IMG/VR virus record: IMGVR_UViG_3300045988_038600
Location: 1-36,809 of that record
Strand: one strand, 5' to 3'
Source: a virus
DNA: 36,809 bases
Shown: one piece after another, positions 4,376-36,710 of the stretch
Layout: every line of letters starts with the position of its first letter
How positions within the stretch are numbered: the stretch's first letter is position 1
Notes under the pieces: generated by a model
Database searches by the model: none
The model's input: the letters and a program-made list of their open reading frames with translations, nothing else
Told to the model about the DNA's origin: nothing
Translations under genes and position numbers: made by a program

Positions 4376-4852
4376 ATGAGGGATTCAAAAAAATCTAGTT
4401 CATACTCTGATGAGTGGTACACGCCCAAATTCATCATAGACAGTTTAGGCAAATTTGATTTAGACCCGTGCGCACCGAGCGTACCACTATTCAAAACCGC
4501 CGAAGTGATGTATAATGAATTCGACGACGGACTAGCGCAAAAATGGGAGGGGCGCGTGTGGCTTAACCCGCCTTATTCCCGTCCGCTGATAAACAAGTTT
4601 ATGCGCCGGATGACAGAACACAACCGAGGGACGGCCCTAATCTTTTCGAGGACTGACACGGAACTGTTTCACACGGAAGTGTTCGGCAAGGCAACCGCGG
4701 TTAAGTTCTTGAAAGGTAGAATTAAGTTTCTAAGGCCGGACGGAAGCGAAGCCGGGACACCCGGATGTGGTAGCGTGTTAATCGCGTACGGTGAAGAGGA
4801 TGCGAATATGTTAGAATGTAATGAACTAGAAGGAAAATTTATAAGGTTATGA
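4376..4852 (+). CDS. Phage Dam-type DNA N6-adenine methyltransferase
   Basis: The motifs SDEWYTP...DLDPCA...VWLNPPYS are typical of the small phage N6-adenine methyltransferase family (NPPY catalytic motif). Confidence 0.8.
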   Translation: MRDSKKSSSYSDEWYTPKFIIDSLGKFDLDPCAPSVPLFKTAEVMYNEFDDGLAQKWEGRVWLNPPYSRPLINKFMRRMTEHNRGTALIFSRTDTELFHTEVFGKATAVKFLKGRIKFLRPDGSEAGTPGCGSVLIAYGEEDANMLECNELEGKFIRL

Positions 4853-8414: not shown

Positions 8415-8421
8415 GGATTGA

Positions 8422-8454
8422 GGGGTTAATGTATAAAAACGTTAACCCCTTTTT
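8422..8454 (+). terminator. Intrinsic terminator T1 (GGGGTTAA / 12-nt loop / TTAACCCC followed by TTTTT)
   Basis: 8-bp perfect stem at 8422-8429 and 8442-8449, with a T-run at 8450-8454, lying 7 nt after the stop of the last early gene. Confidence 0.8.
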
Positions 8455-8672
8455 GTGTTAAAATCGTGTTAACGCTTTTGGCGCACTTCTACAAAAACTT
8501 TGTGCGAGAAAACTTTTTAGAGAGAAAAGTTGATTTTAACTGTATTTTAACTAAAAAGCCTGTTTTTGACAAAAAAGTAGCCAAAACGTCTTTTACAACT
8601 CAATTTCATGTTTTACACCTGACCGCACTCACAGGACGCAGAACGCATTTTTCAAGTTTTTGATGTAAAAGG

Positions 8673-8900
8673 TTAAAATTTGTTTCTTTTACACCTAAAT
8701 CGCTTATTTATAGTACTTTATCATATAATATAGTGTATTTGTAATAGATGTAAAGATGATTAGTAGTGGAGTACATATTAATAAGTAATAATATAGTTAA
8801 CATAAATATACTATTGTTATTTTAAATAATAAATATATGGTATTTTTTAAATATACTCTATAGGGAAACTACCTTTTCATCGTTTACATCATTTACATCG
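8673..8900 (+). repeat. AT-rich non-coding cassette A, homologous to cassette B at 28737-28953
   Basis: The 50-bp core 8673-8722 matches 28737-28786 at 45/50. GATGTAAAGAT is identically spaced in both. A second conserved block lies at 8846-8889. Confidence 0.8.
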
Positions 8901-8940
8901 GGCTGAAACCCCGATGAACAGGGCGTTTCAGGTGTAAACG
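8881..8940 (+). promoter_or_regulatory. Nested inverted-repeat / pseudoknot-like element upstream of terS
   Basis: The outer inverted repeat is CGTTTACA (8881-8888) with TGTAAACG (8933-8940). The inner hairpin is CATCGGG (8896-8902) with CCCGATG (8910-8916). Its loop CTGAAAC (8903-8909) is complementary to GTTTCAG (8925-8931). Confidence 0.5.
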
Positions 8941-9015
8941 ATAGTTTTGGTAGGTGTAAAGATGGCGATTTGGGCGGAAAAAGCGTATTTTTGTAGAGTT
9001 GTAAATAAAAATTAT

Positions 9016-9705
9016 ATGGCTACAAAGAAGAAAGAAATTATAGAAACGAAGGAAGCGGTACAGCTGCCGAAAGTCGAGAAGGTCAGGCCGGATTACGCGC
9101 ACTTCCAATTAGCTCCCACATACGCGACCACCAAGTATTTGGCGGATTCGTTCAATTACACCAAGTGCTACCAAGTCGCCACAGCGCACTATGGTATGAC
9201 GCCTATCTGGCAGGAGCCCCAAGAACTTTGGGAGGCGTACGCGATTTACTCGGCTTGGTGCGAGGCTACGCCCGTTATAACACAAGAGGCCGTCAAGTCC
9301 GGTAACATGGCCGGGACGCTCTATGAAGTGCCAAAGAAGCACCTTCAATCGGAGGGGGAGTTCTGTATGTTCCTTGGGGCAAATCCCGTGTACTTAAGCA
9401 ATAGACGCTCCACGTACGCCGAGAACCTCAAGGAGTTCGATCTGACGATATGCGCGGACTTCATAGCGGTGATCGACAGGATACGCGAAGCCATCGCACA
9501 GGAACTCGATCAAGGTGCGACGGTGGGACAGTTCGACGCCAACTATGTTCGTGCCTTACGGGGCATTAAAACGCAAATGGACTACACGTCTAACGGTGAA
9601 GCCATCAAGGGCGGTTTGACGGTCAACGTAACCGATCCGAAAGTACGTGCAAAGGTTAGCTCGATTAAGAACTTTAAAAAGAATCATAAGGAGGACGAGA
9701 AGTAA
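9016..9705 (+). CDS. terS: Putative terminase small subunit (ATG at 9016; the track ORF begins at 8947)
   Basis: Lies immediately upstream of and coupled (TAATG) to terL. The segment PQELWEAYAIYSAWCEATP...FCMFLG resembles gp3-type DNA-packaging/small terminase N-termini. Confidence 0.55.
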   Translation: MATKKKEIIETKEAVQLPKVEKVRPDYAHFQLAPTYATTKYLADSFNYTKCYQVATAHYGMTPIWQEPQELWEAYAIYSAWCEATPVITQEAVKSGNMAGTLYEVPKKHLQSEGEFCMFLGANPVYLSNRRSTYAENLKEFDLTICADFIAVIDRIREAIAQELDQGATVGQFDANYVRALRGIKTQMDYTSNGEAIKGGLTVNVTDPKVRAKVSSIKNFKKNHKEDEK

Positions 9706-10877
9706 TGAATTGCACCTATGTATTCAATAAGATGATAGAGCCGTTTTGTGACCCCTATATAAGAGGTATCGCGAGCAAAGGAGGTACACGTTCTTCCAAG
9801 ACGTGGAGCGTGTTACAGCTCCTCTATCTGGTCGCTAACGAAAGCACCGAGCCCCTTATGATCTCATGCGTTACCGACACGCTCCCGGCGGTCAAGCGCG
9901 GTATGTTCCGCGACTTTCAGAACATGCTGCTGGACGAAGGGGTGTGGGACGACAACGCCCTCAACAAGTCTGATTTGATCTACACGGTGAAGCCGGGCGT
10001 GTACATCGAGTTCTTCGGGTGCGACAACGCGTCGAAGGTACATGGCCCGGCCCGTGACATTCTTTTCATCAACGAGGCGCAACGCGTGCCCCGCGAGATA
10101 TTCAGGCAGCTGGACGTACGTACCACGATCAAGGTTATCATTGACTTCAACCCGGTGCGCCGCTTCTGGGGTGAGACGGACTTCACAGGCGACAAGTACG
10201 TAACGATCCATAGCACCTACAAGGATAACCCGTACCTAACCAAGCAACAAGTAGAGGCGATAGAGCGCAACGCTAAGGACGCTAATTGGTGGCGCGTCTA
10301 CGGTGAAGGACTGACGGGCGGGCTGGAAGGCCTCGTATATCCCCAAATCGAGACGATCGACGCTTTGCCGGAGGATTTAACAGGCGAGGACGTTAAGTTC
10401 GTCACAGGGCTTGATTTCGGCTTCCAGAACGACCCGACCGCTATTGTCAAAATCTACATGCGGGGCATGAACCTGTATATCGATGAGGTGTGTTACGAGA
10501 CGAAGATGCTTAACCGCACGATCGCCGAGCGTCTTAAGATGGAAAGACTGGACCGCACCATTACGGTATGTGACAACGCCGAGCAGAAGTCTATCATAGA
10601 ACTAAGGGGGCTAGGCTGCAACACGATCCCCTGCATAAAAGGAAAGGGATCAATCAGGGCGGGCATACAACAGGTGAAGCAGTTCAACCTGTTCGTGACG
10701 AAGCGGAGCACGAACGTACTGGACGAGGTAGACAATTATACATACGTCAAGGACAACCTAACCGACACGTACACCAACGAGCCGGTAGACGCTTACAACC
10801 ATGCATTGGATGCAGTACGTTACGGCGTTGACTATCTTATACGTAAATACCGGCCGAGATACGCAAATAATGATTAG
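9705..10877 (+). CDS. terL: Terminase large subunit
   Basis: Walker A-like KGGTRSSKTWS, an ATPase Walker B region (ILFINEAQ), and a C-terminal nuclease region (GLDFG...VCDNAEQKSIIEL...DAVRY). Confidence 0.85.
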   Translation: MNCTYVFNKMIEPFCDPYIRGIASKGGTRSSKTWSVLQLLYLVANESTEPLMISCVTDTLPAVKRGMFRDFQNMLLDEGVWDDNALNKSDLIYTVKPGVYIEFFGCDNASKVHGPARDILFINEAQRVPREIFRQLDVRTTIKVIIDFNPVRRFWGETDFTGDKYVTIHSTYKDNPYLTKQQVEAIERNAKDANWWRVYGEGLTGGLEGLVYPQIETIDALPEDLTGEDVKFVTGLDFGFQNDPTAIVKIYMRGMNLYIDEVCYETKMLNRTIAERLKMERLDRTITVCDNAEQKSIIELRGLGCNTIPCIKGKGSIRAGIQQVKQFNLFVTKRSTNVLDEVDNYTYVKDNLTDTYTNEPVDAYNHALDAVRYGVDYLIRKYRPRYANND

Positions 10878-10886
10878 ATTTGCAGC

Positions 10887-11045
10887 ATGAGAGTAGACGA
10901 TCGGGTACGCATTAAATACGATTATGCCGGGGACACCGGGACGGTTACGGAGACCGGTGTGTTAGGCGTGGTCGTGCAATGGGACGGATCGAACGTTGAG
11001 GAGTGGTATTATTACGAAGAACTAGAACTGATTGAATATGAGTAA
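10887..11045 (+). CDS. Small hypothetical protein, 52 aa (not in the ORF track)
   Basis: Hand translation: MRVDDRVRIKYDYAGDTGTVTETGVLGVVVQWDGSNVEEWYYYEELELIEYE. Its end overlaps the next ATG (11038). Confidence 0.45.
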   Translation: MRVDDRVRIKYDYAGDTGTVTETGVLGVVVQWDGSNVEEWYYYEELELIEYE

Positions 11046-11718
11046 AACAGCGTTTTATGGCGTGGAGTGGTTGATCCTGCAAGAGCAAACCAACTGGCAG
11101 GGAAAGATTAAAAACGCTTTCCGTCGCTTGTGGTGGAAAATTTGTGGGTATTACAACCGCAAACAATTGGAATATATTTGTAACTTGCATCCGAATTACA
11201 AGGGCGGCCTAACTTCTGACCAAGCAGCGACACTTAACGCGGTGGCAGAGTACGCTAAGGCCGACCCTTTTATTATAAAAGACAGGAAGCTCGTGTACCG
11301 TATACCCCGTATAGAGGACGTGACGCTATGGCAGGTTATCGAGGCGAGAAGGAGCGAGACAGCAACGGAGAAGGTTACTAAGTGGTGTACGCCTATCGAG
11401 CACAAGCCAGCCGAGTATGCGCCGGATAACGTCTACCATTTGCTATGCGCAACGAAGTACATCAAAGAGCAGATCGAAACGGCGGACGGACTAGAGAAAC
11501 GGTTGTTCCCTTTTGACGCAGGGAGCACGCCGGAAGATGATCCGATCAAGGAGGCAAAGAACGTGCTGACGCTCGTACAGGCTACAGCGGAATTATTCGC
11601 TTGTTCGTTCGAGGACGCGAAGCGGATCAACTATCTAGATGCGATGCTGGCGCTGTCCAAGCGGCACGAGGAGAACGAGAAACAGAAGGCAGAGATGAAG
11701 AAACATTATAAATCATAA
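11038..11718 (+). CDS. Hypothetical virion-module protein (226 aa from the ATG at 11038; the track gives TTG 11032)
   Basis: ORF track frame. Confidence 0.65.
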   Translation: MSKTAFYGVEWLILQEQTNWQGKIKNAFRRLWWKICGYYNRKQLEYICNLHPNYKGGLTSDQAATLNAVAEYAKADPFIIKDRKLVYRIPRIEDVTLWQVIEARRSETATEKVTKWCTPIEHKPAEYAPDNVYHLLCATKYIKEQIETADGLEKRLFPFDAGSTPEDDPIKEAKNVLTLVQATAELFACSFEDAKRINYLDAMLALSKRHEENEKQKAEMKKHYKS

Positions 11719-11722
11719 CGTT

Positions 11723-14086
11723 ATGGGTTTAAAAAAGTATGAGATTATTACAGTAGGGAGCGACAAGAGAGTACGCGCCCTTCGTTCGTGGGCGGTAGGC
11801 GACCGTTACGTCAATATTGGCGACGTGGGCGGTATCGTGTACGACGAGAAAACCTTATCACAGGACGGCGCTTGCTGGCTGTTTAGGGGCAACTTCGGTT
11901 TTCCCGGTGCACGCATTGGCGGGGATTCGATCGTAGACGTAGGCGAAGTGACATTACCCGATACAGGTACGCCTAACGTAGACATTCTAGGGTCTAGTGT
12001 CGTAGTGGGTAGTAAATTACGGTTCACGTCAGATCAAACAGTGGCGGACGCGGTGGTGCTGACGGCGGCTGACTTTGAACAAGGCGGCTTTAATCCACGG
12101 ATTGTGGGCAACCCGTTAACAGGTTCAGACAGCCCTATCTATATAAGGACTAAAAACCCTATATTTGCAGGCGGTAAAACCGTAACCCTTAAATGCGAAG
12201 TTCCGGGGTACTCGGTTCAAGCGTTTGTATTGGATCGTGACGGACTTGTTATAACGGGCACACTGACCACTGCAACGGGGGCGGGCGTAGCCATAACAGT
12301 ACCCGCCGGGCAGTACTTTAGTCTTATGATGACGAAAGCCCCGGCAGATGAAACAACCCCGGCAGACGCGACAGCCGCCCAAATCACGTTTACGGGCACT
12401 TATGAAACCAAGCTTTCCGTCATTGATTCACGTGTTGAGATCAACCCGGCAACCGCTACAGGCATGGCAATAATCAAACCGGGCGGCATATATGCGATCA
12501 GTCCCGGTGCGAAGTACCCGGAGGCGATCATAAGAAATTCCAATATGTCTATAATCGTTCCGGCGAGTGCTAATAGAATATTCCGTTTGATGGGGCAGGT
12601 GATCCGATCACCTGCAACGCTAGACGCCACGGCGGGCGAAGTTGCGATATCCGGGTCGTACAGCAATATCAAGAACCTAACGGCTTCAGGCATATTGCCC
12701 GTCGCCTTAGATGTAAGAGCATATAACATTATACAGGCTCACGACTGTGATAACTTCGTAGTATCACCTACGATCTTTCCCGGACTGGCAGCAGCCCAAA
12801 CGGCTAACATGCCTTTTATCTTCCAAGGATGTAACGTTCCGAACGGTATATTCTACCATCACGCACAAGTAGCCAACACTTATAAGAACATTGATTTCGC
12901 GAAGGCTCAAGCTGATTTGGGCAAAGCTATTGCGTCCGGTGAAATACTTGCTAGTTCAGAAGTTGAAGGGATGTACCGTGCGTATTCAGTATCGGGGACT
13001 GTTTTTGGCGGTCTAGTTGAGGGTTACGATAGTGTCAAGTCCCTGAACATGGCGGGCACAGCAAGCTCTTATGGCACTACGATCTATAAGGACGCATATT
13101 TCACCGGACTGTTTGACTTCGCGGGTACGAACGTATTTGGTAATAAAGTTCGCAGCCATCAATTGGCACAGGTTCTGAACGTTCAACCGCGTGCGGTACA
13201 AGGTGAGTTCAATACGAGGACAACCGGACAAACCGTTACGGGTGTTGCACCTAGTACTTCCGTAGTTTCAATTGCGACCCCGTTCCGGGTGGCTGGGGGT
13301 AAGGGTCTTACAGTTCTGACACCCCCCGCAGGTTTGCGGGTTTTAGTGTTATTAACAGACATTAATAATAAAGTCATTACAAACACCGGGTGGGTAAGCG
13401 TAGAAACAAACCTTTCGCCCGTCGCGGTCTCTACATCTTATTACGCGTATATATCAGTAAGAAAGACCGCATTAACCGATCTAAACCCTTCTGACGTGGC
13501 AGGTACTCAAATAGTAACATACAACGGTTGTAAGATCGTGAACACAGGAGAAACGGCGGTTAACATGAAGGGTAATATCCGTGTAGAAGATAACGCTACA
13601 CTCGTCGATGCTAGCGTAGTTGGGTCGGGCTACTTCGGAGGAAACGCTGATGTGTCGGGCGTGACTGTTGAAGGGTGCGCCTACGTGAAGGATAACGCCG
13701 TAATCGTAGTACCGGCCGGATCAGCAACTATTCGTAGCTTGAAAATGACCGAAAACGCGTACGCCGCACCGGCAGCTCTTACTTTGAACGGCCATATATG
13801 GTTGTCGGGCAATTCAAAGTTTATCCCCGCAGCTGCCGCGTCAGGTAACGGTGATCTATTTATGCAGGATAACGCGGTTATATCGGGGTCGGTGTCCGTG
13901 AGCGGGTCACTCACCATGAAAGACAACGCTAAGGTGAGCGCGGGTACATTAAGCGTATACGGAGATATAACCGTTTGCGGTTCGTACAATCAAACTGTAA
14001 GTAAATTGTGGACGGGTAAACGCGTGATTGACAACGAGAACGCGCCGGGATACGATAATAACGTAAAAACTCAATATGACTTTTAA
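11723..14086 (+). CDS. Putative tail fibre / receptor-binding protein, 787 aa, with beta-helix-like repeats at both ends and two internal copies of a ~110-aa module
   Basis: Gly/Val/Asn-rich short repeats occur at the N-terminus (GDVGGIVYDE..GDSIVDVGEV) and C-terminus (GNADVSGVTVEGCAYVKDNAVI...QDNAVISGSVSVSGSLTMKDNAKVS). It lies in the structural block. Confidence 0.6.
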   Translation: MGLKKYEIITVGSDKRVRALRSWAVGDRYVNIGDVGGIVYDEKTLSQDGACWLFRGNFGFPGARIGGDSIVDVGEVTLPDTGTPNVDILGSSVVVGSKLRFTSDQTVADAVVLTAADFEQGGFNPRIVGNPLTGSDSPIYIRTKNPIFAGGKTVTLKCEVPGYSVQAFVLDRDGLVITGTLTTATGAGVAITVPAGQYFSLMMTKAPADETTPADATAAQITFTGTYETKLSVIDSRVEINPATATGMAIIKPGGIYAISPGAKYPEAIIRNSNMSIIVPASANRIFRLMGQVIRSPATLDATAGEVAISGSYSNIKNLTASGILPVALDVRAYNIIQAHDCDNFVVSPTIFPGLAAAQTANMPFIFQGCNVPNGIFYHHAQVANTYKNIDFAKAQADLGKAIASGEILASSEVEGMYRAYSVSGTVFGGLVEGYDSVKSLNMAGTASSYGTTIYKDAYFTGLFDFAGTNVFGNKVRSHQLAQVLNVQPRAVQGEFNTRTTGQTVTGVAPSTSVVSIATPFRVAGGKGLTVLTPPAGLRVLVLLTDINNKVITNTGWVSVETNLSPVAVSTSYYAYISVRKTALTDLNPSDVAGTQIVTYNGCKIVNTGETAVNMKGNIRVEDNATLVDASVVGSGYFGGNADVSGVTVEGCAYVKDNAVIVVPAGSATIRSLKMTENAYAAPAALTLNGHIWLSGNSKFIPAAAASGNGDLFMQDNAVISGSVSVSGSLTMKDNAKVSAGTLSVYGDITVCGSYNQTVSKLWTGKRVIDNENAPGYDNNVKTQYDF

Positions 14087-14474
14087 AGGGATATTAGATC
14101 AGGTTGGAACATGGGGGGCGCAACATGCGCTTCCCGTATTCTTTGGAGATGAGGCCACACGTAATCGACTGGCAAACGATATAACGGGTGATTTTATCTT
14201 TGTTGATGTGCCCGGAGGGAGGCAGGACTATAATGACTACGCCGCCGAGACGTTCGCGATCACGGTGCTTATACAGGTACTGGGGACTTCACACTACGAA
14301 AGTGACAGCTCTTCCGAGATCGATGTACTGGATCGGACGTTTACAGTAATAACCGACATAGCGAAGAAGGCGGTTTGCCTCTACGAATCCGAGGGCGCGG
14401 CGGTAACCAAGCGCCAAAACATTTACGACAGTCCTAAATCGGGCTGGGAGATAACTCTTAATCTATCTGAATAA
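14076..14474 (+). CDS. Hypothetical virion protein, 132 aa
   Basis: ORF track. Overlaps or couples with its neighbours. Confidence 0.65.
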   Translation: MTFKGILDQVGTWGAQHALPVFFGDEATRNRLANDITGDFIFVDVPGGRQDYNDYAAETFAITVLIQVLGTSHYESDSSSEIDVLDRTFTVITDIAKKAVCLYESEGAAVTKRQNIYDSPKSGWEITLNLSE

Positions 14475-14920
14475 TGGCACGTAACGCGATGTTGGAAATA
14501 GAGGTCCTGTTAACCAAGCTACGGGACGACATAGAAGCGTCTTACAAGGCTAAAGGGCTGATGGCATCCGGTAACTTTGCCAAAGAGCTTAAGTTGGTTG
14601 TAGGCGGCAACAATGCTAAGATAACCGCACCGCGCTATGTGGGTGCGATGGAAGGCGGAAGGATCGCAGGTAAACGCCCCCCGCTTTGGATCATACGTAA
14701 ATGGATCGAGGACAAGAACAGGCAAGGCGCGAACATACCGTTAACCGCGGCTTATCCGATCGCGAAAGCTATCGGAGAGTTCGGGATCAAAGTACCCAAC
14801 AGCCACAACCCCGGCGGCGTAGTATCGGACGTTCTCAACCCTGCAAGGGTATTGAAGTTACAAAACGAGATAGTAACTATAATTAAATATGCTATTATTG
14901 ACACTTTAAATATTAAATAA
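14474..14920 (+). CDS. Hypothetical virion protein, 148 aa
   Basis: ORF track. TAATG coupling at both ends. Confidence 0.65.
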   Translation: MARNAMLEIEVLLTKLRDDIEASYKAKGLMASGNFAKELKLVVGGNNAKITAPRYVGAMEGGRIAGKRPPLWIIRKWIEDKNRQGANIPLTAAYPIAKAIGEFGIKVPNSHNPGGVVSDVLNPARVLKLQNEIVTIIKYAIIDTLNIK

Positions 14921-17142
14921 TGAATATATACATACCGATAGCAGATGTGACACTAACCGACGGCCAGACCTATGACGGGCAGTTACCCGTGTGGGCTACA
15001 CGCCCGCTAATGGTGAAGGTGACAACGGGCACGAACGAGCCTGTTAATATTACTGTGAGGAACAGCGGATTGGCGGTTAAAACCATAACTTTGCCATATC
15101 AGCAGTACGGGATGGACGTTGACCTATCCTTCGCTGCCCCTTTGCTTAAGCGCGCCGACCGTAACAAGTCGCAGGGTACGCCGTGGTTTATGCAACAGGA
15201 GCTATTGTTCTGGGTATCCGACCCGACGGACTATATAACTATTCCGGTATTCCATTGCGATCTCACATACTGGGACACGCTAGGAGTAGATGCGGCTCTT
15301 CCCCAACCGCCGAAACCGCGTATACCGGGGCATACACTAGACATATTCTTCCCCTATGTTATACACCCGTCTGACGCGTTTTTCCTTGAGGTTGAACCCG
15401 TGACAGGCGCGCCCGGTAATGTTATATTTCCCGCTACCTATGTACTGGGAAACACTATTGATATCACGTATATCAAAAAGTTGACAATTAAAAACGTGTG
15501 GGGTAACGGGCTGGATCAAGTGATTAACTATGAAGATCGCCTAATGTCTGACGCTGTCTATGATACCGGGCTTCAATGCGCTTTGCGCGCCAGATGGAAC
15601 ATGCGCAACGGGCAATGGTTTTGGGCTGCATTTAAAGATTACTTTTGGTCTAACAAGTTCACACCGATCCGAGGACGTGGAGGCGTAACGGAACAAGCGG
15701 AGATCACTATAAACCTAGAGTACGGCGAAGAGTATTATAACGTGTACCAAGAGTTGTTGGTATCTTCAAACGTAGTGTTCGAGTTGAACCTTCCGGGCAT
15801 AAACCAATATCAATCGAAACGCTTTAGGGCGGAAGTTTCAGGCGACACCGGCGCGCGCTGGTCTAACAGTACCAAGACGTACAGGCAGCAAGTAAGGTTC
15901 AAGACCACGAAACTACAAGACAACTACATGTTCCCGTTAGCACCGGATCAACCGCCTGCACCGTCGATCGTGTTTACAGCACAGAAAAACCCGTGGACGA
16001 TCGTCGCGGCCTACGCGGAAGGACTGGTTAACAGCATATACAGTAACACGACATGGCAAGTACAGAGCGAACCGAGCTGGCTTACTGTGACTAACGGCAC
16101 GACGCTATTAACGCCCGGCATGTTCGAGCAGGGCAGCATATTGTTTAGCGCGGGCCTGACCTGGGAACAAGCAAAAGTGGGAAGCTCGTATAACATAAGA
16201 CTAAAAAAACCCTTCACGGAAATAGATAACAATGCGTACCGTATTATAGCAAATGATCCAGCGTACGAATGTGTATTTGACTATTTAGATGAATACGGGA
16301 AGCTTGTTACAAATTCCGGATGGCGTTCCATGGGGGCTATAATAAACACAGGTAGGAGTCCACAAGTGGCTTTACGTATCAAAAAATCGGACGGTACCGC
16401 GATCACGCCCGCAGACATCACATCGATAAACGCCTATTGGGGGAAACGTTATCACCAATTCCCGGCGGGTACGTCTAATCTCACCGCAACGGTAGCCGCC
16501 AACACTGGTGAACCGAGAACGGGTAACATAGTCCTAGAGAATATAGTGGGGTCTACTACCTATACAATACCAATCAGGCAGGCGGGCGCAACGGGCAATA
16601 TATCGGTAGACACACCGACGTTTAACATAGGCTATCTAACACACCCGGTAACTGTGAACGTTACATCATTTGGTAACTGGTCTGTATCGGCCCGCGATAC
16701 GTGGATCACACCAAATAGGTATGTAGGACCAAACGGAACAACCGCCGTAACGTTAACGATCGGGGATAACTTGCCGGCAGGCGCGTCCGCTAGAACCGGA
16801 ATAATAACGTTCTATAACGACTTAACCGGGAATATAGCAGTAGTTACGGTTAATCAGGGAGGCGCGCCAACTTCGATCAAAATATTACCGTCGCGTGTGT
16901 CAGGCCCTAAAGCCGGAGGAAACCAAATCGTGCTCGCGGCGGCAGCATCCGAAAATAGCTGGACTATGGGTAGCGCGCCTAGCTGGGTATCCATTACACC
17001 TACGTCGGGAGGGTCCGGGCAAACCGCCATAGCTGTTAAATACGATACGGCGAATCCCGGAGCAGCGCGGACAGGGCAATTGAGAATCGAGAATATGACT
17101 ACGCACGAGATTGCGATTTGTTTAATCACACAGGAGGGATAA
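14920..17142 (+). CDS. Tail protein, 740 aa, with C-terminal BACON-like repeats
   Basis: Repeated pattern W..(S/T)....W(L/I/V)(T/S)..P..G.G......(V/L)....N....R.G.I.....: SEPSWLTVTNG, ARDTWITPNRYVGPNGTTAVTLTIGDN..ARTGIITF, and SAPSWVSITPTSGGSGQTAIAVKYDTANPGAARTGQLRIEN. Confidence 0.65.
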   Translation: MNIYIPIADVTLTDGQTYDGQLPVWATRPLMVKVTTGTNEPVNITVRNSGLAVKTITLPYQQYGMDVDLSFAAPLLKRADRNKSQGTPWFMQQELLFWVSDPTDYITIPVFHCDLTYWDTLGVDAALPQPPKPRIPGHTLDIFFPYVIHPSDAFFLEVEPVTGAPGNVIFPATYVLGNTIDITYIKKLTIKNVWGNGLDQVINYEDRLMSDAVYDTGLQCALRARWNMRNGQWFWAAFKDYFWSNKFTPIRGRGGVTEQAEITINLEYGEEYYNVYQELLVSSNVVFELNLPGINQYQSKRFRAEVSGDTGARWSNSTKTYRQQVRFKTTKLQDNYMFPLAPDQPPAPSIVFTAQKNPWTIVAAYAEGLVNSIYSNTTWQVQSEPSWLTVTNGTTLLTPGMFEQGSILFSAGLTWEQAKVGSSYNIRLKKPFTEIDNNAYRIIANDPAYECVFDYLDEYGKLVTNSGWRSMGAIINTGRSPQVALRIKKSDGTAITPADITSINAYWGKRYHQFPAGTSNLTATVAANTGEPRTGNIVLENIVGSTTYTIPIRQAGATGNISVDTPTFNIGYLTHPVTVNVTSFGNWSVSARDTWITPNRYVGPNGTTAVTLTIGDNLPAGASARTGIITFYNDLTGNIAVVTVNQGGAPTSIKILPSRVSGPKAGGNQIVLAAAASENSWTMGSAPSWVSITPTSGGSGQTAIAVKYDTANPGAARTGQLRIENMTTHEIAICLITQEG

Positions 17143-17143
17143 G

Positions 17144-18877
17144 ATGAAAATAGTATCATTAAGAGTTAACGGTTACGACATAGACGGTTTAGATAACGCA
17201 ACGGTCAAGATCACATTAAACAACATTTCCCCGGTTACTATGACCGGGGACAGTGTAGCGTTCAGTGCTACGGTAAAAGTGCCGAGAACGCCCAACAATG
17301 ACCGGACGTTCATAGGGCTAAACAAAGGTTTGCTTAACTGTGAGTATTACGTAGCCGAGGTGCTGATAGCGTCTATACCGTTCAAGTATTACGCTTATGT
17401 GTCTGACGAGCCTACGCCGTTCTACGCCAAGGTATCAGCGTCTCAAACGGAGTACACGATCAACCTTATTGAGAGTACGGACAAGTGGGCCGACGTTAGT
17501 TTACCTATATCCGCGCCGCCCGTTTACGGTACGGTGCAGGATGGAGCGCTACCCATCAGCGCGGCAGACCTTTCCGAGCTAGTAAGACGCTACGTCACGT
17601 TCCCGCAAATCACGTTCCCGGCGATCAACCCGGAATACAGCACAGGTATGGCCGTGCCGGACGCGTTATCGCAGCAGGCCTCTATCATTGTGAAACGGCG
17701 CGATCTTACATGGCAGGGAGACGTAGCGACGGGATCGACAAAGTTAGTGCCGCAGAACTACACGAAGGGGCGCGGAGGGTACGTATATCCCAAAAAAGCT
17801 ACAATCGTAATGGATAACACTAGTATATATGTGAACGCCTCTTATTTTGGGAACGGCACGGGGGGCATAACTCCTGGCTTCCTACTATCGGCAGGGCAAG
17901 GCCGACAGATTGTAATGATCATAGAGTATGTTGGCGCGTCTATTCCGACCAGCAAACCGCCGATACAGTTACGGGGGGTGGCATCGGGTTTGGGTAGATC
18001 ATTGGCATATTCGGGGCAAATATCGGACCGGATTTGGATTTACACGTCCGCTCTAAACGTTAATATGACTATGTACCCGAAAACGGATTCCTACATGAAA
18101 CTATCCGCAACTATCAGGGGAGTGACCCGGGACGACTATTTTAAGTTTCCCGACGGTTACTCGCCGGAAGAGGTTATAAATTGCGGGGACGGTAAAATAA
18201 TATATGATTTGGAAATTGCGCCCGCGTCTCAAACTGTTTACTCTCAACCCGCGGATTTCCCCTACAATGACGTGAAAAAGCTAGTTGATGATATGTGTAC
18301 GGCATGGCATTGGCGGAAGATTTACCGAAACGGTACGTTACGTGTAGAACCAATAGTAGATGCAGACCTTCGGGACGGTACGTCGGACGCGTGGTCGCAT
18401 ATACACGATTGGAGCGACAAATTACGTAGCGTCGAGACGGTAGATGTGCCGGACGAGTTCGCGGATCAATACGTGTGCAGTCTGGACGCTACGCAATTCA
18501 GTTACAGCAACGGCGCGGGCACCGTTACGCCTGTTAAGGACGCGTATAAGTCCGGCGTTAAGTTCACATACGATCGTATGATCTTTCCGAAACTGGGACT
18601 TACCAGTGTATTCACCACTCCATCACCGAGTTTGCCATTTATTTATGTAGGGAGCATTTATTATTCGTATATAAACCGACATTTCGGTATGTTCAGATCA
18701 CGGGTACAGGTGAAAATAAAGGCGCAATTAGAGTATGCAGACGTTGAAAACCTACGATTAGGGGATGCTTACTACTTTTCGCAGCTGAATAGCTGTTTCT
18801 ACATTAAATCTTTAGGCGAATATGACGTAGCAACCGGGAATTGTAAGCTATCTTTGTACAAAATGGATTTAAAGTAA
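17144..18877 (+). CDS. Hypothetical tail/baseplate-module protein, 577 aa
   Basis: ORF track. Lies between the BACON protein and the tape-measure-like gene. Confidence 0.6.
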   Translation: MKIVSLRVNGYDIDGLDNATVKITLNNISPVTMTGDSVAFSATVKVPRTPNNDRTFIGLNKGLLNCEYYVAEVLIASIPFKYYAYVSDEPTPFYAKVSASQTEYTINLIESTDKWADVSLPISAPPVYGTVQDGALPISAADLSELVRRYVTFPQITFPAINPEYSTGMAVPDALSQQASIIVKRRDLTWQGDVATGSTKLVPQNYTKGRGGYVYPKKATIVMDNTSIYVNASYFGNGTGGITPGFLLSAGQGRQIVMIIEYVGASIPTSKPPIQLRGVASGLGRSLAYSGQISDRIWIYTSALNVNMTMYPKTDSYMKLSATIRGVTRDDYFKFPDGYSPEEVINCGDGKIIYDLEIAPASQTVYSQPADFPYNDVKKLVDDMCTAWHWRKIYRNGTLRVEPIVDADLRDGTSDAWSHIHDWSDKLRSVETVDVPDEFADQYVCSLDATQFSYSNGAGTVTPVKDAYKSGVKFTYDRMIFPKLGLTSVFTTPSPSLPFIYVGSIYYSYINRHFGMFRSRVQVKIKAQLEYADVENLRLGDAYYFSQLNSCFYIKSLGEYDVATGNCKLSLYKMDLK

Positions 18878-18883
18878 ATTAAT

Positions 18884-21397
18884 ATGGCGGATCAAGTAAC
18901 ATTATTAGACCTTAATTTTGGCACGTCTGAAGCCGAGAAGGGGCTAGACGCGTTAATAGCTAAGAGTATGGCCCTTGCAAAGACTAAAAAGGATTTGCAA
19001 GCGGCGTACGCTTCCGAGAAGAAGGAGCTAGACGCGCTAAATCAGAACTACGCGGACGGACTTGTACAGCAAGACAAGTACGACGCAACTGTTAAGAAGC
19101 TGAATAAGTCTCTGATCGAGACGCAAAAGGCGATCCTAGACAACAAGGAAGCCAACAAACAGAATAATGCCGAGATCAAGAGTACGAAAACGCTCCTAGA
19201 CAATGAAGCCACGAGCGTCAACGCTTTGCGTGCACAGTTAGCGCAGAACACCTCGGAGCTGAACAAGATGAGCGAGGCGCAACGGACTACCAGCAAGGAG
19301 GGGCAGGACTTGACCGAGCAGACTAAAGCGTTATCGGACAAACTTAAGGAGCTGGAAAAGTCGGTAGGCGACAACCGCCGTAATGTCGGTAATTACGCCG
19401 AGAGCGTTAAAGACGGCATATTACAGACACAGGGACTAACCGGAGGCACTGGCGCGCTAGTGGGACAGATGAAAGGCGGCATAGCCGGGGTGCAGGCGTT
19501 CAACGCAGCATTAAAGGCGAACCCTATTATATTTGTCGTGTCTATTGTGTTAACACTTATCGGTACCATCGAGAAGCTGATGAAACGCAACAGTGAGTTA
19601 GCGACTAGCCTGCAAGCGGCGTTCGCCCCGTTTAAGGTGATTTTCGGGCGTTTGCTGGACTGGATAACCGGATTGTTTGAGGGCGTAGCGTTCTTGCTTG
19701 AAAACCTTGCTAAGGGCGTTACACGGCTTCTAGACAAATTAGGGCTTATCAGTGAAGAGACGAAGAGGGCAGCAGCGGAAGGCGCGAAGCTAGCAACCCA
19801 AACGCAGAAGATTTACCAAGCCGAAACGGCGGCACTCGTACCGATGGCACAGATGCGGCGCGAGATGGAAGAGTTTAAGACCCTTGCAGCGGACCAAAAC
19901 AAGTCAGCGGCGGAACGTACTAAACTGCTAGAACAAGCTAGGGAAAAGTTGCATGCTATCCGTGATATGGAGTTGTCCGTACTGGACGCGAAATATAAGC
20001 AAATCAAAGCCGAGAACCAATTAGGCTACACTAGTGACGAGGACGCCCGTAAAGAACAGGAAGCACTTGCGGCACTGGAGGCAGCTAGAGCAAGTTACGC
20101 TACACAAGAGAAAGAAATGGCGGGGCAGGTGTCCGGCTTTATCAAACAGGAGCGTGACAAGCAGGCACAAGCGGCACAAGCCGCGGCGGCGAGGTCAGCG
20201 AAGGCGGCGGAAGATGCGGCGAAGCGAGAAGCAGAAGCGCAGAAGAAAGCGCAGGACGCTATTAAGGCCGCGCAGGAAGCACAGCTCAAGAAATACTCGG
20301 AAGCAGTTACCGCAATGCAGCTGGACATAGCCCAACGGGAAATTGAAGGGGCTCAAATCTCATTGCAAGAACTGCAAGCGGTCAACGATCAGAAGATCGA
20401 GATAGAGACGTACAGACGCGCACAAGGTCTTATAGGTGAGCAAGAATACATTAACAACGTTCGCCAACTCGAGTTGGAATACGCCGCAGAAGTCAAGGCC
20501 CGGAAGGACGAGGAAGACCAGCAGGAGCGAGACCGTCAAGCGCTCAACATGGAGAACGACCGCGCGCTAGCTGACATGAAAATGGGCAACGATTTGGAAA
20601 GCCAGCTGGCTCGGCTGGACGCACAGAAGGCTGCCGAGATCGCTAACGCGGAAGCGATCGGAGCGGAAACAACCGCGATAACCGAACGTTTCGAAAAAAT
20701 GAAGGACGAGACAAAGAGGAAGTACTATAACGCGCAATTGGAGATGGCAGCGGGCACAGCCGGACAGCTCTCTAGCTTACTGGGAGAAGAGAGCGCAGCG
20801 GGCAAAGCGTTTGCCACGGCACAGGCTATTATCAACACGTACCTAGGTGCGTCTAAAGCAATCGCGCAGGGTGGTATATGGGGTATCGCACAGGCGGCTA
20901 TTGTAGTGGCGGCCGGTATGAAGAACGTTATGAGCATTAACAAGACCAAAGAGCCGGACACCAAGATCAACACAAGCGTTCGCAAATACGCGAAGGGCGG
21001 ACAAATATACGGAGCCAGTCATGCGGCCGGGGGCGTAACGTTCACCGGGTCAAATGGGCAGCAGTTCGAAGCCGAAGGCGGTGAGAACATGTATATTTTG
21101 AACCGTAAAGCGTCCGGCGCGATCAACGCGTTATCAGCTCTTAATATGGAGTACGGCGGGCGTTCGTTCGGTTCGTCTGGCGTGTACCGATACGCTAACG
21201 GTGGGAAGATCGACGTAGGTGGCGGTGCGAGCATGCAGTTACCTAGTAATTTCAGCTTGTCAAATGATAGTTTGCAAAAATTAGCGGCGATCATGTACGA
21301 TTCAGTGGCTAGCGTTCCCGCTCCACGTGTGGTGGTTACCGACATAGACGAGGGTCAACAACAATATAATAGTGTACAGGTAGCGGCTAGCCTATAA
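18884..21397 (+). CDS. Tape-measure-like protein, 837 aa (or internal/ejection protein)
   Basis: Long A/E/K/Q-rich coiled coils, two hydrophobic segments (PIIFVVSIVLTLIGTI and GIWGIAQAAIVVAAGM) and a Gly-rich C-terminus, which is typical TMP architecture. Confidence 0.65.
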   Translation: MADQVTLLDLNFGTSEAEKGLDALIAKSMALAKTKKDLQAAYASEKKELDALNQNYADGLVQQDKYDATVKKLNKSLIETQKAILDNKEANKQNNAEIKSTKTLLDNEATSVNALRAQLAQNTSELNKMSEAQRTTSKEGQDLTEQTKALSDKLKELEKSVGDNRRNVGNYAESVKDGILQTQGLTGGTGALVGQMKGGIAGVQAFNAALKANPIIFVVSIVLTLIGTIEKLMKRNSELATSLQAAFAPFKVIFGRLLDWITGLFEGVAFLLENLAKGVTRLLDKLGLISEETKRAAAEGAKLATQTQKIYQAETAALVPMAQMRREMEEFKTLAADQNKSAAERTKLLEQAREKLHAIRDMELSVLDAKYKQIKAENQLGYTSDEDARKEQEALAALEAARASYATQEKEMAGQVSGFIKQERDKQAQAAQAAAARSAKAAEDAAKREAEAQKKAQDAIKAAQEAQLKKYSEAVTAMQLDIAQREIEGAQISLQELQAVNDQKIEIETYRRAQGLIGEQEYINNVRQLELEYAAEVKARKDEEDQQERDRQALNMENDRALADMKMGNDLESQLARLDAQKAAEIANAEAIGAETTAITERFEKMKDETKRKYYNAQLEMAAGTAGQLSSLLGEESAAGKAFATAQAIINTYLGASKAIAQGGIWGIAQAAIVVAAGMKNVMSINKTKEPDTKINTSVRKYAKGGQIYGASHAAGGVTFTGSNGQQFEAEGGENMYILNRKASGAINALSALNMEYGGRSFGSSGVYRYANGGKIDVGGGASMQLPSNFSLSNDSLQKLAAIMYDSVASVPAPRVVVTDIDEGQQQYNSVQVAASL

Positions 21398-21464
21398 ATC
21401 ATAGGCAAAGCCGCGGCTTCGTGCCGTAAAATACTATATCTTTGTACCAATAATACAGTAATAT

Positions 21465-22484
21465 ATGAAAATATTTGAAAAGTTACGCATTATAGAAGCC
21501 GGGGAAACCGCAAACTACTATGAAGAAGGGGGAAAGGCTTATAAATTAGTCATCTCTGCTAGTGCTTTCCCGTCTCTAGTGGCCTTAGGTAATTCCCGGC
21601 CTATTCACGCACGCCGCACTCATAACGGCACGGACTTGCTAGACGGGTACATAGGACACTTCGCTAACTTCACACACGACGAAAACGCCGTTTACGCTGA
21701 TCTGGTTATGTCTGAAGCTTTGGAAAGCGCGTATCCTAGCGAATATAATTTTATGGTTGCTATGATCGAGAAAGAGCCGGAGCTATTGGGCGTATCGGTT
21801 AATCAGTCTGATGTTAAGCAGTTGGACGAAGAAGCGCAAACCGCAACCGTAACAGAAGTAAGAGAATTATTTAGTGCCGATTTGGTGGGACTTCCCGCGG
21901 CTACTAGTTCTTTATTTAATAACAATTTAAACAACTTATCAATGAGCAAATTTTGGACAAAATTAGCAGAGCTAGTTAAATCAACTAAGCTAGCTAGGGA
22001 AACCGTCACAACCAAAGAAGGAAAGGAGCTTGTTATTATCGCTCAAGGCGAACAAGCTGCATTGGGTGACGAAGTACAGGACGCCGAAGGCAAACCCGTA
22101 GAGGATGGCGATTATTACATTTCGATTGGCGAAGGCGAGGACATGATCATATCAGTCGTAGCCGGGAAGATTTCCGACGTGAAGGAAGTGGAAAGCGAAG
22201 CTAAGCCCGAGGAAGAAAAGCCGGAAGAGTTAGCAACCGAGGAAGAAAAGCCGGAAGAGGAAGAGAAGAAAACCCCTACACCGGAAGAACTTTCAGCGAT
22301 CCGCAAAGAAGTTACCGAGCTGAAGAAAACCGTAACTGAACTCAAAACACAGTTAAGCAAACGTACTGGTGCACCGGCAGCGGCTAAAACAGAGCTGAAG
22401 ACCGAAACTAAGACCGGAACAAAATTGAGCCGTGAAGAGGTTCAGAAGGCCGCGGCAGAAATGCGCAAAAAATTCAAATTCTAA
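21465..22484 (+). CDS. Putative prohead protease-scaffold fusion, 339 aa
   Basis: Lies directly upstream of the MCP gene. The N-terminal RRTHNGTDLLDGYIGHF..DENAVYADL...LLGVSVNQ resembles HK97-type S78 protease motifs. The C-terminus is an acidic EEKPEE repeat plus coiled coil, as in scaffolds. Confidence 0.5.
   Translation: MKIFEKLRIIEAGETANYYEEGGKAYKLVISASAFPSLVALGNSRPIHARRTHNGTDLLDGYIGHFANFTHDENAVYADLVMSEALESAYPSEYNFMVAMIEKEPELLGVSVNQSDVKQLDEEAQTATVTEVRELFSADLVGLPAATSSLFNNNLNNLSMSKFWTKLAELVKSTKLARETVTTKEGKELVIIAQGEQAALGDEVQDAEGKPVEDGDYYISIGEGEDMIISVVAGKISDVKEVESEAKPEEEKPEELATEEEKPEEEEKKTPTPEELSAIRKEVTELKKTVTELKTQLSKRTGAPAAAKTELKTETKTGTKLSREEVQKAAAEMRKKFKF
22207..22259 (+). repeat. 23-bp direct repeat CCGAGGAAGAAAAGCCGGAAGAG x2 with a 30-bp period (in frame, encoding EEEKPEE)
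   Basis: Read directly: 22207-22229 equals 22237-22259. Confidence 0.8.
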
Positions 22485-22504
22485 TCTACTAAAACATTAA
22501 AATT

Positions 22505-23461
22505 ATGGCATTTACATTTAGCGATTTAAACAAATTGAATATCGACAGCCTGGCCGATGTTATTTCTTTGACACTGGGTTTGGAGGGCGAACTTTCCAAC
22601 GGTGTAACCGTGTTAGCAGGCATTGAGAAGGGTAAACCTATCTTGACTTTCACCGCAACAGACAAGGCGGTAAGACGTTCCGCGGGTTGTGATAGTGAAT
22701 ACAAGTATAGTTCTCTTAACGATAAGGTTAAATATTACGATCATGCACAGATTGAGTTGCCTATCGTGGTTTGTCTGCAAGACTTGTGGGGCAAAATGGT
22801 TGCAAAAGGTGTTCACCTTTCAGCTGATTTCGACCAAACACAATTGGCGGCGTTCATGCAGAACGAAATTCTGAAAGTTCTTGAAGCTGATATGTTACGT
22901 CTCGTATGGTTGGATGGTCTGAAAACAACTGATACAGCGGGTGAGTACACAGTGTTTAAAAACGGTGGTATCATCAAGCAAATGCAGGCATCAACCGAGT
23001 CAATTAAGGCTCTTGTACCTTCTGGCGCAGACGCAAACGTTTTGGAATGCTTAAAGTGGTGTATCGACAACCAACGCCCGGATCAATTGGACGATTCAGA
23101 GTTCTACGTAACTAGCAACATTATGCGTGCTTACAAGGACTTAGTTGAAGCTAAAGATAATCATTTGGCACAGGCTAACATGGAGAATGGCAAACCCGCA
23201 TACTACTTCGAAGGTTACAAGGTGAACGAGTTGAGACACGTATCTAACAGTGCTAAGGGTGACGCTTTGACAGTTCAGTCTTTCATTGCTTTCTCACCGA
23301 AAACTAACATTCAGTTGGCGCTTGAAGACGCGAGTCTGACTATTGATCCGTTCATCCGCGATGCTAAGGATCGTAAGTATTACAGTACAACCGTATTTGC
23401 GGCTGATGCTATGCTTGCAGTTCCTCAATACTTGAAATTGTGCACCGCAGCAGGTGTTTAA
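22505..23461 (+). CDS. Major capsid protein (HK97-fold size class), 318 aa
   Basis: Position after the scaffold, size, and a visibly different T/A-ending codon style typical of highly expressed genes. No signature motif could be checked by eye. Confidence 0.65.
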   Translation: MAFTFSDLNKLNIDSLADVISLTLGLEGELSNGVTVLAGIEKGKPILTFTATDKAVRRSAGCDSEYKYSSLNDKVKYYDHAQIELPIVVCLQDLWGKMVAKGVHLSADFDQTQLAAFMQNEILKVLEADMLRLVWLDGLKTTDTAGEYTVFKNGGIIKQMQASTESIKALVPSGADANVLECLKWCIDNQRPDQLDDSEFYVTSNIMRAYKDLVEAKDNHLAQANMENGKPAYYFEGYKVNELRHVSNSAKGDALTVQSFIAFSPKTNIQLALEDASLTIDPFIRDAKDRKYYSTTVFAADAMLAVPQYLKLCTAAGV

Positions 23462-23480
23462 TAATTAAAACAAAGTTTAA

Positions 23481-24014
23481 ATGGCTTGTATAAAGACATT
23501 AAATAAAGCAATTACCTACGACTGCCAACCCGGTAGCGTAGGTATCGCTGAAATGTATCTGATTAACTTTGACGACGTAACAGGCGCAACCGTTGATGTT
23601 AACAATTACATCACGGCGGTAACACTAAAAAGCGGGGCAAAAACTGTCCCCGTAGAGTGTTACAAGAATGGCGCGAAGTTTACGGAGGCGCTGAAGTTAT
23701 CAGACGTTTCGGCAGGTTTGGATCAGTCTATCATGTTTACCTTATATGATAAGTCCGCAAATGGTCGGATGATTATTAGGGCACTAATGAATGGGCGTTT
23801 TATGGCAGCGGTTAAGCTGAACGATATTAATGCCGAGCCTTTATTGGTTGGTTACAAATGCGGGCTTGAAATTTCTCAAGCTGATACGGATTCTAGCGCA
23901 GCAGGCGGTTTTACTACGGTAACTATTAAAACGCCGGACGATGCTAGAGGAGAAAATAGAATAACAATGGCTTCGGCAGTGTGGGCAGCAATCGCAGCCG
24001 CAAAAATAGCTTAA
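23481..24014 (+). CDS. Structural paralog 1 of 3 (putative tail tube / major tail-like protein), 177 aa
   Basis: Shares M(A/G)C(I/L)..L......DC..G, (I/V)AEM.LINF.D, NG.F.A.VK and GGFTTVT(I/L) with 24018-24551. Confidence 0.6.
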   Translation: MACIKTLNKAITYDCQPGSVGIAEMYLINFDDVTGATVDVNNYITAVTLKSGAKTVPVECYKNGAKFTEALKLSDVSAGLDQSIMFTLYDKSANGRMIIRALMNGRFMAAVKLNDINAEPLLVGYKCGLEISQADTDSSAAGGFTTVTIKTPDDARGENRITMASAVWAAIAAAKIA

Positions 24015-24017
24015 AAT

Positions 24018-24551
24018 ATGGGATGTTTAAATAAACTGGATAAAGCGATCTTAGTTGATTGCGACGGAGGGGCAACAGGCGTAGCCGAGATGCTTCTTAT
24101 CAACTTTGCGGATATTGCTACAAAGAGCGTAGCGGATGGCATTGCCACTATAACGCTAGCCACTAACGCTAAGGCCGTGCTGGTTGAGAGTAACAAGAAG
24201 GGTGTAAACGCTACGGAAGAAGTCAAGCAGAACGACAATGCGCCAACAGCGTTAACGCAGGCGGTTACGTTCACGCTGTATCAAGGTGACGTAAACGGAA
24301 CTCTGATAGTGAATCAGATTTTAAACGGTACGTTTTTAGCGCTTGTCAAGACTAAGGCGGGAAGAATTCGGGCATACGGGTATAATTACGGTTTGAGCGC
24401 AACCGCTATTTCGGAGGACTTGAACGCTAACGGCGGTTTTACTACCGTCACGTTATCGACATCAGAAAATGTTATCGGCGAGGCGCGTGTAAGCTTCGCA
24501 GATGCTAGTTATAACACGTTGAGAGCCGCGGCTATCGTAACAGAATCATAA
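24018..24551 (+). CDS. Structural paralog 2 of 3, 177 aa
   Basis: See paralog 1. Same length and colinear motifs. Confidence 0.6.
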   Translation: MGCLNKLDKAILVDCDGGATGVAEMLLINFADIATKSVADGIATITLATNAKAVLVESNKKGVNATEEVKQNDNAPTALTQAVTFTLYQGDVNGTLIVNQILNGTFLALVKTKAGRIRAYGYNYGLSATAISEDLNANGGFTTVTLSTSENVIGEARVSFADASYNTLRAAAIVTES

Positions 24552-24564
24552 AGGAGGATATTAT

Positions 24565-25104: not shown

Positions 25105-25125
25105 TAAATTAAAACAGTTTAAAAG

Positions 25126-25635: not shown

Positions 25636-25654
25636 TATTTAAAAAGGTAAATCA

Positions 25655-26803: not shown

Positions 26804-26804
26804 T

Positions 26805-28642: not shown

Positions 28643-28692
28643 CACCTTTCATCTTTCATAAACGCCCTTTCATCATTTACATTTGAAAACTT

Positions 28693-28724: not shown

Positions 28725-28736
28725 GCTTGTGAATGA

Positions 28737-36696: not shown

Positions 36697-36710
36697 GTTA
36701 ATATACTAAA

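Follow-up and report, generated by a model that had tools for sequence, protein, structure and literature searches.

The stretch of DNA analyzed here, referred to as the window, is the whole 36,809-nucleotide viral record IMGVR_UViG_3300045988_038600 of IMG/VR, and our subject is a pair of non-coding cassettes within it, A (8657-8900) and B (28721-28953), together with the phage primase-helicase that is proposed to act on them. The window assembles as a circle, representing a phage genome of ~36.7 kb, with positions 1-99 identical to 36711-36809; the genome is that of a Bacteroides siphophage, and its plus strand carries all of the long open reading frames (ORFs). Cassette A lies upstream of the small terminase gene terS (9016-9705; PHROG terminase small subunit), and cassette B lies 3' of the last late gene (28055-28642) and 150 nt 5' of a canonical early promoter. 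A preliminary description of this DNA had presented the two as non-coding direct repeats at the early/late (A) and late/replication (B) junctions, each preceded by an intrinsic terminator, far more AT-rich than the rest of the genome and closed in all reading frames, and this description holds. Terminator hairpins precede both cassettes, the lowest-GC 100-nt windows of the whole genome (12-15% GC) are those of A and B, and stop-free runs, over six frames, do not exceed 37 codons in A or 44 codons in B. The features of the two regions and of the primase-helicase gene are as follows.

8420-8458, plus strand: terminator T1 (hairpin 8420-8451 and a T run), ending the early operon ~200 nt 5' of cassette A.
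8592-8617, minus strand: outlying TGTAAA iterons at 8592 and 8612 in the spacer 5' of cassette A, from the motif list.
8657-8900, plus strand: cassette A, paralogue of B.
Cassette A, 5' module: iteron s1 at 8664 (plus), a 13-nt spacer, iteron s2 at 8688 (minus), the pentamer TAAAT and AT-rich tract 1.
Cassette A, 3' module: tandem iterons s3 at 8740 and s4 at 8749 (plus), AT-rich tract 2, and tandem iterons s5 at 8883 and s6 at 8892 (minus).
8906-8934: hairpin CTGAAAC-(15 nt)-GTTTCAG, directly 3' of cassette A.
8933-8964, plus strand: further iterons GGTGTAAACGAT at 8933 and GGTGTAAAGATG at 8955, located 3' of the hairpin and 5' of the terS promoter region.
8969-8993, plus strand: candidate late promoter outside cassette A, with a perfect -7 box TATTTTTG at 8986-8993 and no correctly spaced -33 element.
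28693-28724, plus strand: terminator T2, read from the sequence, ending the late operon; its T run forms the first bases of cassette B.
28721-28953, plus strand: cassette B, laid out as A.
Cassette B, 5' module: a degenerate inverted pair, TGTGAA at 28728 and TGTAAT at 28752 (minus), TAACT and AT-rich tract 1.
Cassette B, 3' module: tandem iterons at 28804 and 28813 (plus), AT-rich tract 2, and a single inverted iteron at 28946 (minus).
28970-29039: B-side hairpin CTTAACTA...TAGTTAAG (28970-28998), then iterons CGTAAAGAT at 29001 (plus) and TTTACA at 29034 (minus).
29103-29132, plus strand: early promoter, TTTG-N18-TACCTTTG, 3' of cassette B and outside it.
34200-36590, plus strand: primase-helicase of 796 residues, a homologue of Rep1 of the Staphylococcus aureus pathogenicity islands (SaPIs) and the proposed iteron-binding initiator.
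36384-36551 (residues ~729-784): C-terminal winged helix of the primase-helicase, from an AlphaFold2 (AF2) model.

Public records leave most of the cassettes without an annotated feature, and place others under short 'hypothetical protein' genes. Examples of the latter are BC422P2_00025 in OP172643 (L001 15265-15381) and BC679P1_00003 in OP172647 (L100 1057-1359); in non-coding DNA that resembles an origin, such gene calls are probably spurious.

Cassettes A and B are real paralogues. The ungapped identity of 69/90 reported earlier for 8673-8762 against 28737-28826 was reproduced, as was that of 45/50 in the 50-bp core; GATGTAAAGAT stands 74 nt from the core start in each copy (8747-8757 and 28811-28821), and the conserved 3' block reads as it was first quoted. 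A repeat search extends the core to 66 nt at 83% identity (8657-8722 and 28721-28786) and finds 76% identity over 33 nt in the 3' block. Local alignment of 8657-8900 with 28721-28953 gives a score of 136, against a mean of 30.5 (sd 4.8, maximum 59) for 1000 dinucleotide shuffles (z=22); AT-rich intergenic regions elsewhere in the window reach 16-31. The 26-nt core pattern is present at two places only, in A and in B, even when three mismatches are allowed.

The hexamer TGTAAA recurs throughout both regions. Ten of its 33 genome copies are in the A zone (8580-9010) and six in the B zone (28660-29045), where dinucleotide shuffles of the zones lead one to expect 0.98 and 0.57, respectively (P<0.001 each), and the clustering has a binomial P of ~3e-18 under uniform placement. 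Tandem iterons s3 and s4 are spaced 9 nt apart, and AT-rich tract 2, which is 120 nt long, has a GC content of about 15% in A and 12-15% in B. The pentamer reads TAACT in B and in the relatives, and TAAAT in cassette A of the window. When 26 A and 26 B copies are compared, 115 columns are both conserved and common to the two sets, and most of these fall in the iterons, TAACT and other layout elements. The hairpin immediately 3' of cassette A is CTGAAAC-CCCGATGAACAGGGC-GTTTCAG in the window and CTGAAAC-GCCCTGTTCATCGGG-GTTTC in 30/31 relatives, the 15-nt interior of the one being the exact reverse complement of the other; a short segment has been flipped between inverted repeats of 7 nt, and template switching is a possible cause.

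Both cassettes are kept in 19 cultured phages of Bacteroides ovatus, kribbi and koreensis, and in ~30 IMG/VR contigs of the window clade that were found via the genes flanking the cassettes. The expectation that the pair would recur at the same two junctions in related phages was borne out in at least four phage clades: with a gene order as in the window, a paralogous pair is present in B. caccae phage BC679P1 (~330 nt, A/B score 320), in B. uniformis phage EMB1 (~220 nt, A/B score 169), and in the L210 clade (A/B score 136). The cassettes of BC679P1 do not align with those of the window (scores 29-37), a score of 81 for its B copy being due to a shared early promoter, and a blastn search with the window cassettes matched no locus of the B. 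uniformis clade. What these distant clades share with the window is the layout and the pentamer TAACT, and each has an iteron of its own.

The iteron of EMB1 is TGCACAG, with 10/12 of its genome copies within the two cassette zones. Iteron subtypes in the B. uniformis clade are TGCACAG, T[TA]ACACAG, GACACAG and GACCAG, and those in the window clade are either TGTAAA or TGTCAA together with TGGAAA. Cassettes A and B of any one genome share the same subtype in both clades, which is the pattern expected of a sequence-specific protein co-evolving with its sites.

A candidate for this protein is the primase-helicase, which by sequence and by modelled structure is homologous to SaPI Rep1 and has a confidently modelled winged-helix C-terminal domain. 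Its whole-length matches are to phage primase and helicase families, and it contains a VapE-like domain at residues 464-682 (Pfam PF05272, E=4e-76). A phmmer comparison with chain 7pds_A, from the SaPI1 Rep1-DNA complex (PDB 7PDS), gives E=5e-74, and a profile of eight phage homologues aligns to Rep1 residues 126-464 of 477, through the C-terminal domain (E=6e-87). An AF2 model of residues 560-796, built on a 60-sequence alignment, has a predicted local distance difference test (pLDDT) score of 93-97 over the C-terminal ~100 residues and a topology there of strand, helix, helix and beta-hairpin, which is that of a winged helix; modelling of the C-terminal domain with a shallow six-sequence alignment gave a pLDDT of 52. 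In Foldseek, 7pds chains take the first six places (E 1.5e-11 to 4.8e-9, ~240 columns), and winged-helix DNA binders follow as weaker matches. The C-terminal domain alone, used as a query, returned only seven fragments.

To rank proteins by their association with the iterons, all early-region proteins and the flanking late genes were aligned and their variable columns scored by normalized mutual information (MI) with iteron class. Among 42 genomes and 2119 variable columns of the B. uniformis clade, the top three positions are residues 793, 796 and 794 of the 812-residue primase-helicase (MI 0.83, 0.70 and 0.64), followed by a runner-up column at 0.51, and 0/300 label permutations reach 0.83. 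The scan of the window clade (34 genomes, 2076 columns) likewise places a primase-helicase position first, residue 778 of the 796-residue protein, at 0.84 with the runner-up at 0.59, a value that about 1% of permutations reach (P about 0.01). This residue is R in 12/12 TGTCAA/TGGAAA phages and A, Q or V in 21/22 TGTAAA phages. The best columns of other genes in the window clade score 0.27 (terS), 0.23 (a small helix-turn-helix (HTH) protein) and 0.22 (a 195-residue late protein), and because the genes flanking the cassettes score so low, physical linkage does not explain the covariation. A simpler test for fixed differences between GACCAG and CACAG phages had picked out two primase-helicase positions only; it is too weak alone and was replaced by the multi-class scan. 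Residue 778 starts the second wing strand of the model and residues 793-796 of the B. uniformis phages align to the first, which puts the covarying residues of both clades within the hairpin that forms the wing in the model.

These data suggest strongly that the cassettes are very probably binding sites of the phage Rep-like initiator-helicase, and we consider it likely that the genome carries a SaPI-type origin of replication in duplicate, as A and as B, served by the primase-helicase. The preliminary description had led with a promoter and listed an origin, composed of an unwinding element and iterons, as an alternative; it is the latter that is favored, and the former is not supported (see below). 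We infer from the sequences that the primase-helicase physically binds the iterons and that replication fires at A and B. The protein would bind through its C-terminal winged-helix domain, melt the AT-rich tract, load itself as a hexamer and prime synthesis for the phage PolA, and the upstream terminators T1 and T2 would shield both sites from read-through transcription. The two sites may both be active origins, or one may be an origin and the other an auxiliary or fork-arrest site as proposed for oriR of phage SPP1.

SaPI origins have 6-12 iterons and a central AT-rich region, with at least two iterons per side in opposite directions (PMC9371898). The ten TGTAAA copies of the A zone and six of the B zone are within this range for iterons of 5-6 nt, and opposed iterons flank the AT-rich region in full in A and in part in B, which has one fewer. 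Cognate specificity of the initiator C-terminal domain for its iterons is seen here as covariation, to which the window is an exception. DnaA boxes are not enriched, with six near-matches in place of 7.5 expected and none in the cassettes. Because the window phage encodes a PD-(D/E)XK exonuclease (DUF2800) and an Enc34-type single-stranded DNA-binding protein, and a VRR-NUC nuclease and an SNF2-type helicase are annotated in its relatives' public records, recombination-dependent restart is plausible.

Several points weigh against the origin interpretation. The origin of a SaPI directly follows its rep gene, but no iterons are present in 36591-36710 or 1-51, and the primase-helicase gene is separated from the cassettes by 5.3 kb on its upstream side and by 8.8 kb on its downstream side. 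Cassette B of the window has one clear inverted iteron 3' of its long AT tract and a degenerate 5' pair, and the iteron of the BC679P1 clade is poorly defined, with 7/52 loose matches in its two zones. The iteron classes used in the scan were set after inspection of the data, and the label permutations ignore phylogeny and shared ancestry. The window itself is the sole exception to the residue-778 rule, having R778 (36531-36533) with TGTAAA iterons; its primase-helicase also has N737, S747 and I761 in the same domain, all unique to it, and these may compensate for R778. Finally, binding of the initiator would be compatible with a regulatory or fork-barrier role as well.

An extension of the two-origin proposal holds that A and B form an obligate coupled pair, at which the Rep-like helicase would bridge or loop the genome, or would fire at one site and arrest the fork at the other. 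Such coupling would set the switch from theta to rolling-circle replication and physically separate an early/replication domain of the circular genome from a late one, with the state of replication controlling the early-to-late transcription switch. It would explain the constant bracketing of the late operon across at least four diverged clades; we regard it as unlikely.

Among the rival explanations, the least improbable, though still unlikely, is a role in transcription control, with an iteron-bound phage protein turning off the early promoter 3' of B and turning on a late promoter at or after A, or with an activator-dependent promoter in each cassette. Each cassette is indeed located between a terminator and the promoter of the next operon, the iterons reach to 22 nt from the -7 box at 8986-8993 that has no proper -33 element, and the A and B copies of the window both contain the near-consensus -7 box to which the preliminary description drew attention. 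However, that box (TAccTTTT with an upstream TTT[AG]) is kept in 8/35 distinct A copies and 6/33 distinct B copies of the relatives, and it overlaps the inverted iteron, cTTTTACAT being the reverse complement of ATGTAAAAg. The full consensus TTTG-N17-23-TAnnTTTG occurs in the genome at 19, 2488, 29103 and 31444 only, and not inside the cassettes; given the poor conservation of the box and this lack of a consensus match, a promoter within the cassettes is unsupported. A sigma-70 promoter scan is uninformative, since its 4 and 7 matches are barely above the 3.1 and 4.3 found in shuffles. As to operators more generally, the distances from iteron to promoter vary among A, B and BC679P1, the iterons covary with the replication initiator-helicase and not with the HTH protein or the small early proteins, the PHROGs and Pfam scans of the proteins revealed neither a sigma factor nor an RNA polymerase, and an operator needs less than the 230-330 nt of shared architecture with long AT tracts.

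The sequence TATAGGGAAAC in A was considered as a T7/SP6-like promoter and rejected, there being no phage RNA polymerase among the large ORFs (PHROGs, Pfam) and no copy of the motif in the A cassette of EMB1. The canonical Bacteroides promoters outside the cassettes, TTTG-N18-19-TAnnTTTG at 19-49, 2488-2518, 29103-29132 and 31444-31473, belong to one repeat family of 40-99 nt that reaches into the 5' ends of the downstream genes, and they are probably early promoters. The -7 box TATTTTTG is 23 nt 5' of the terS start, and the upstream sequence GGCGGAAAAAGCG is also present in BC679P1 (GGCGGGAAAGCCGTATATTTG); 8969-8993 is thus put forward as a candidate activator-dependent late promoter. A motif like TTTTTGAGAGAAAAGTTTT is present at 8508-8533, in the spacer 5' of A, and at 1-20 and 29084-29100, just 5' of early promoters; BC679P1 (L100) has ~5 copies of a similar motif upstream of its cassette A, and it may be an operator or an UP-like element.

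Two further explanations are both very improbable. One is that the cassettes specify RNAs, either small non-coding ones or leader RNAs that act in cis in the manner of nut or put sites, as might be suspected of two copies of conserved non-coding DNA at operon boundaries. The minus strand of cassette A folds slightly better than shuffles (z=-3.0), but its fold stems from pairing of the inverted iterons, and neither strand of cassette B has a fold that improves on its shuffles (z=+0.66 and +0.35). No Rfam family reaches its gathering score and a tRNA scan was empty, the promoter consensus is neither inside nor upstream of the cassettes, and it is the iteron layout and not the sequence that is kept between clades. 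The idea of an RNA gene was dropped after folding both strands of A and B.

The other is that the cassettes are module-boundary recombination sequences, either promoting the swapping of late blocks between phages or serving a site-specific recombinase as its targets. Their positions exactly enclose the structural and lysis genes, and A and B are more alike than either is to the same-position copy of another clade. Four relatives (L007, L011, L012 and L096) carry on cassette A the B-type 3' flank and hairpin (CTGATACGCAATTAGTTA...GGGCGTAAAAGATG; compare 28955-29010 of the window) and not the A-type hairpin, showing that A and B copies have exchanged sequence in some lineages. A test for gene conversion in the window clade was, however, essentially negative, A-B identity being 0.754 in the same genome and 0.750 between different genomes, which gives little support to the boundary-recombination alternative raised in the preliminary description. 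The protein scans turned up neither a recombinase nor an integrase, a recombinase acting on the direct repeats would remove half of the genome, and the covariation of the iterons with the helicase C-terminal domain would be left unexplained.

Least probable of all is that A is a pac or cos site read by the small terminase, with B as a secondary site or a pseudo site. Cassette A is directly 5' of terS, a common location for pac and cos, and its repeats on both sides of an AT-rich tract are reminiscent of the sites that terminases bind. However, terS does not track the iteron subtype (it shows no fixed difference between iteron classes, with 70-87% identity among the GACCAG phages, and has the low best score given above), packaging models give no role to a second full copy 20 kb away, and the cassettes do not coincide with record and contig ends. 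Those ends were themselves considered as physical ends of the genome and rejected: the start points cluster at in-gene tandem repeats (~30000 and ~25400) and look like assembly breaks. The repeats are in frame, at 30002-30064 (21 nt x3) and 25406-25453 (24 nt x2), and many metagenome contigs and GenBank records of relatives start or end nearby. A 141-nt terminal overlap of record PQ571266 likewise looks like an assembly artefact.

Other features of the genome were noted in passing. The early region contains duplications involving the genes at 52-637 and 2521-2811, with 1-99 matching 2470-2568 at 87%, 424-534 matching 2574-2684 at 72%, and 558-630 matching 2735-2807 at 81%; from these matches, ORF 2521-2811 seems to be a paralogue of segments of ORFs 52-315 and 356-637, or a fusion of such segments. 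A phage-type N6-adenine DNA methyltransferase is encoded at 4376-4852 in the early region (Pfam Dam, E=1e-13), and the sets of methyltransferases at this place differ among relatives. The late gene order (9016-28642) is unusual, with terS, terL, and large tail-like proteins and the tape measure followed by the major capsid protein, adaptors and portal, and most late proteins have no PHROG or Pfam match.

Literature searches found no description of these cassettes, and for the related phages they yielded genome announcements only; no replication origin of a gut Bacteroides phage is known to have been mapped. If A and B are indeed origins of the SaPI type, a group of siphophages widespread among human-gut Bacteroides would gain a defined type of origin and an identified initiator, with a predicted recognition code relating wing residues 778 and 793-796 to iteron bases. 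The mechanism of SaPI Rep proteins and iterons would be extended from Gram-positive satellites to lytic Bacteroidota phages, the dual-origin layout of SPP1 would have a second, independent case, and the origin and its cognate initiator could serve as parts for Bacteroides vectors and phage engineering.

The closest known counterparts are the origins of SaPIs and other phage-inducible chromosomal islands (PICIs) (PMC9371898, PDB 7PDS, 7OLA). SaPI Reps are self-loading superfamily 3 (SF3) helicases that act also as initiators, and their C-terminal winged helix recognizes penta- or hexanucleotide iterons (PMC9371898). The phage system is like these in its homologous VapE-type SF3 helicase, which is fused to a primase as in PriRep5, in its C-terminal winged helix, in its iterons of opposite orientation around an AT-rich tract, and in the matching of initiator and iteron specificity element by element. 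It differs in having two copies and not one, at 5.3 and 8.8 kb from the initiator gene instead of adjacent downstream of it, and in belonging to a virulent-looking Bacteroides siphophage in place of a Gram-positive satellite. The phage cassettes also add a 5' module, the best conserved part, which consists of the inverted iteron pair, TAACT and a short AT tract. A duplication bracketing the late operon is new for this initiator family.

The alpha protein of the satellite phage P4 likewise combines primase, helicase and a C-terminal sequence-specific DNA-binding domain in one polypeptide, and binds one type of iteron at both ori and crr, which are several kb apart and are both required for replication. 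In P4, however, crr consists of two 120-bp repeats 4.5 kb from ori and is not a full second origin-like copy. Iteron-containing theta plasmids (RepA, pi, TrfA; PMC4980987) share short direct repeats, a winged-helix initiator and an AT-rich unwinding element, but their Rep proteins lack helicase function and depend on DnaA and DnaB, whereas the phage has no enrichment of DnaA boxes.

A precedent for two distant origin-like sites in one siphophage is Bacillus phage SPP1, whose oriL and oriR are ~13 kb apart on the circularized genome, have repeats and an AT-rich unwinding element in a common arrangement, and each serve as a binding site for gp38 (PMC6316719). In the model for SPP1, one site fires and the other stalls the fork; collision of a fork with gp38 at oriR has been proposed to trigger the switch from theta replication to concatemers (PMC6316719, PMC3485210). 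The proteins are of different kinds, gp38 needing a loader and a DnaB-type helicase (gp39 and gp40) and the Rep-type helicase being self-loading, and oriL is inside gene 38, whereas A and B are both intergenic and bracket the whole late operon. To the binding of both SPP1 sites by the phage origin-binding protein would correspond, at the level of sequence, the iteron subtype that A and B share in each genome. Both siphophage genomes nevertheless have two distant sites of the same repeat and AT-rich organization, and oriR, like the cassettes described here, is an intergenic site, in the late region, that is bracketed by transcription signals.

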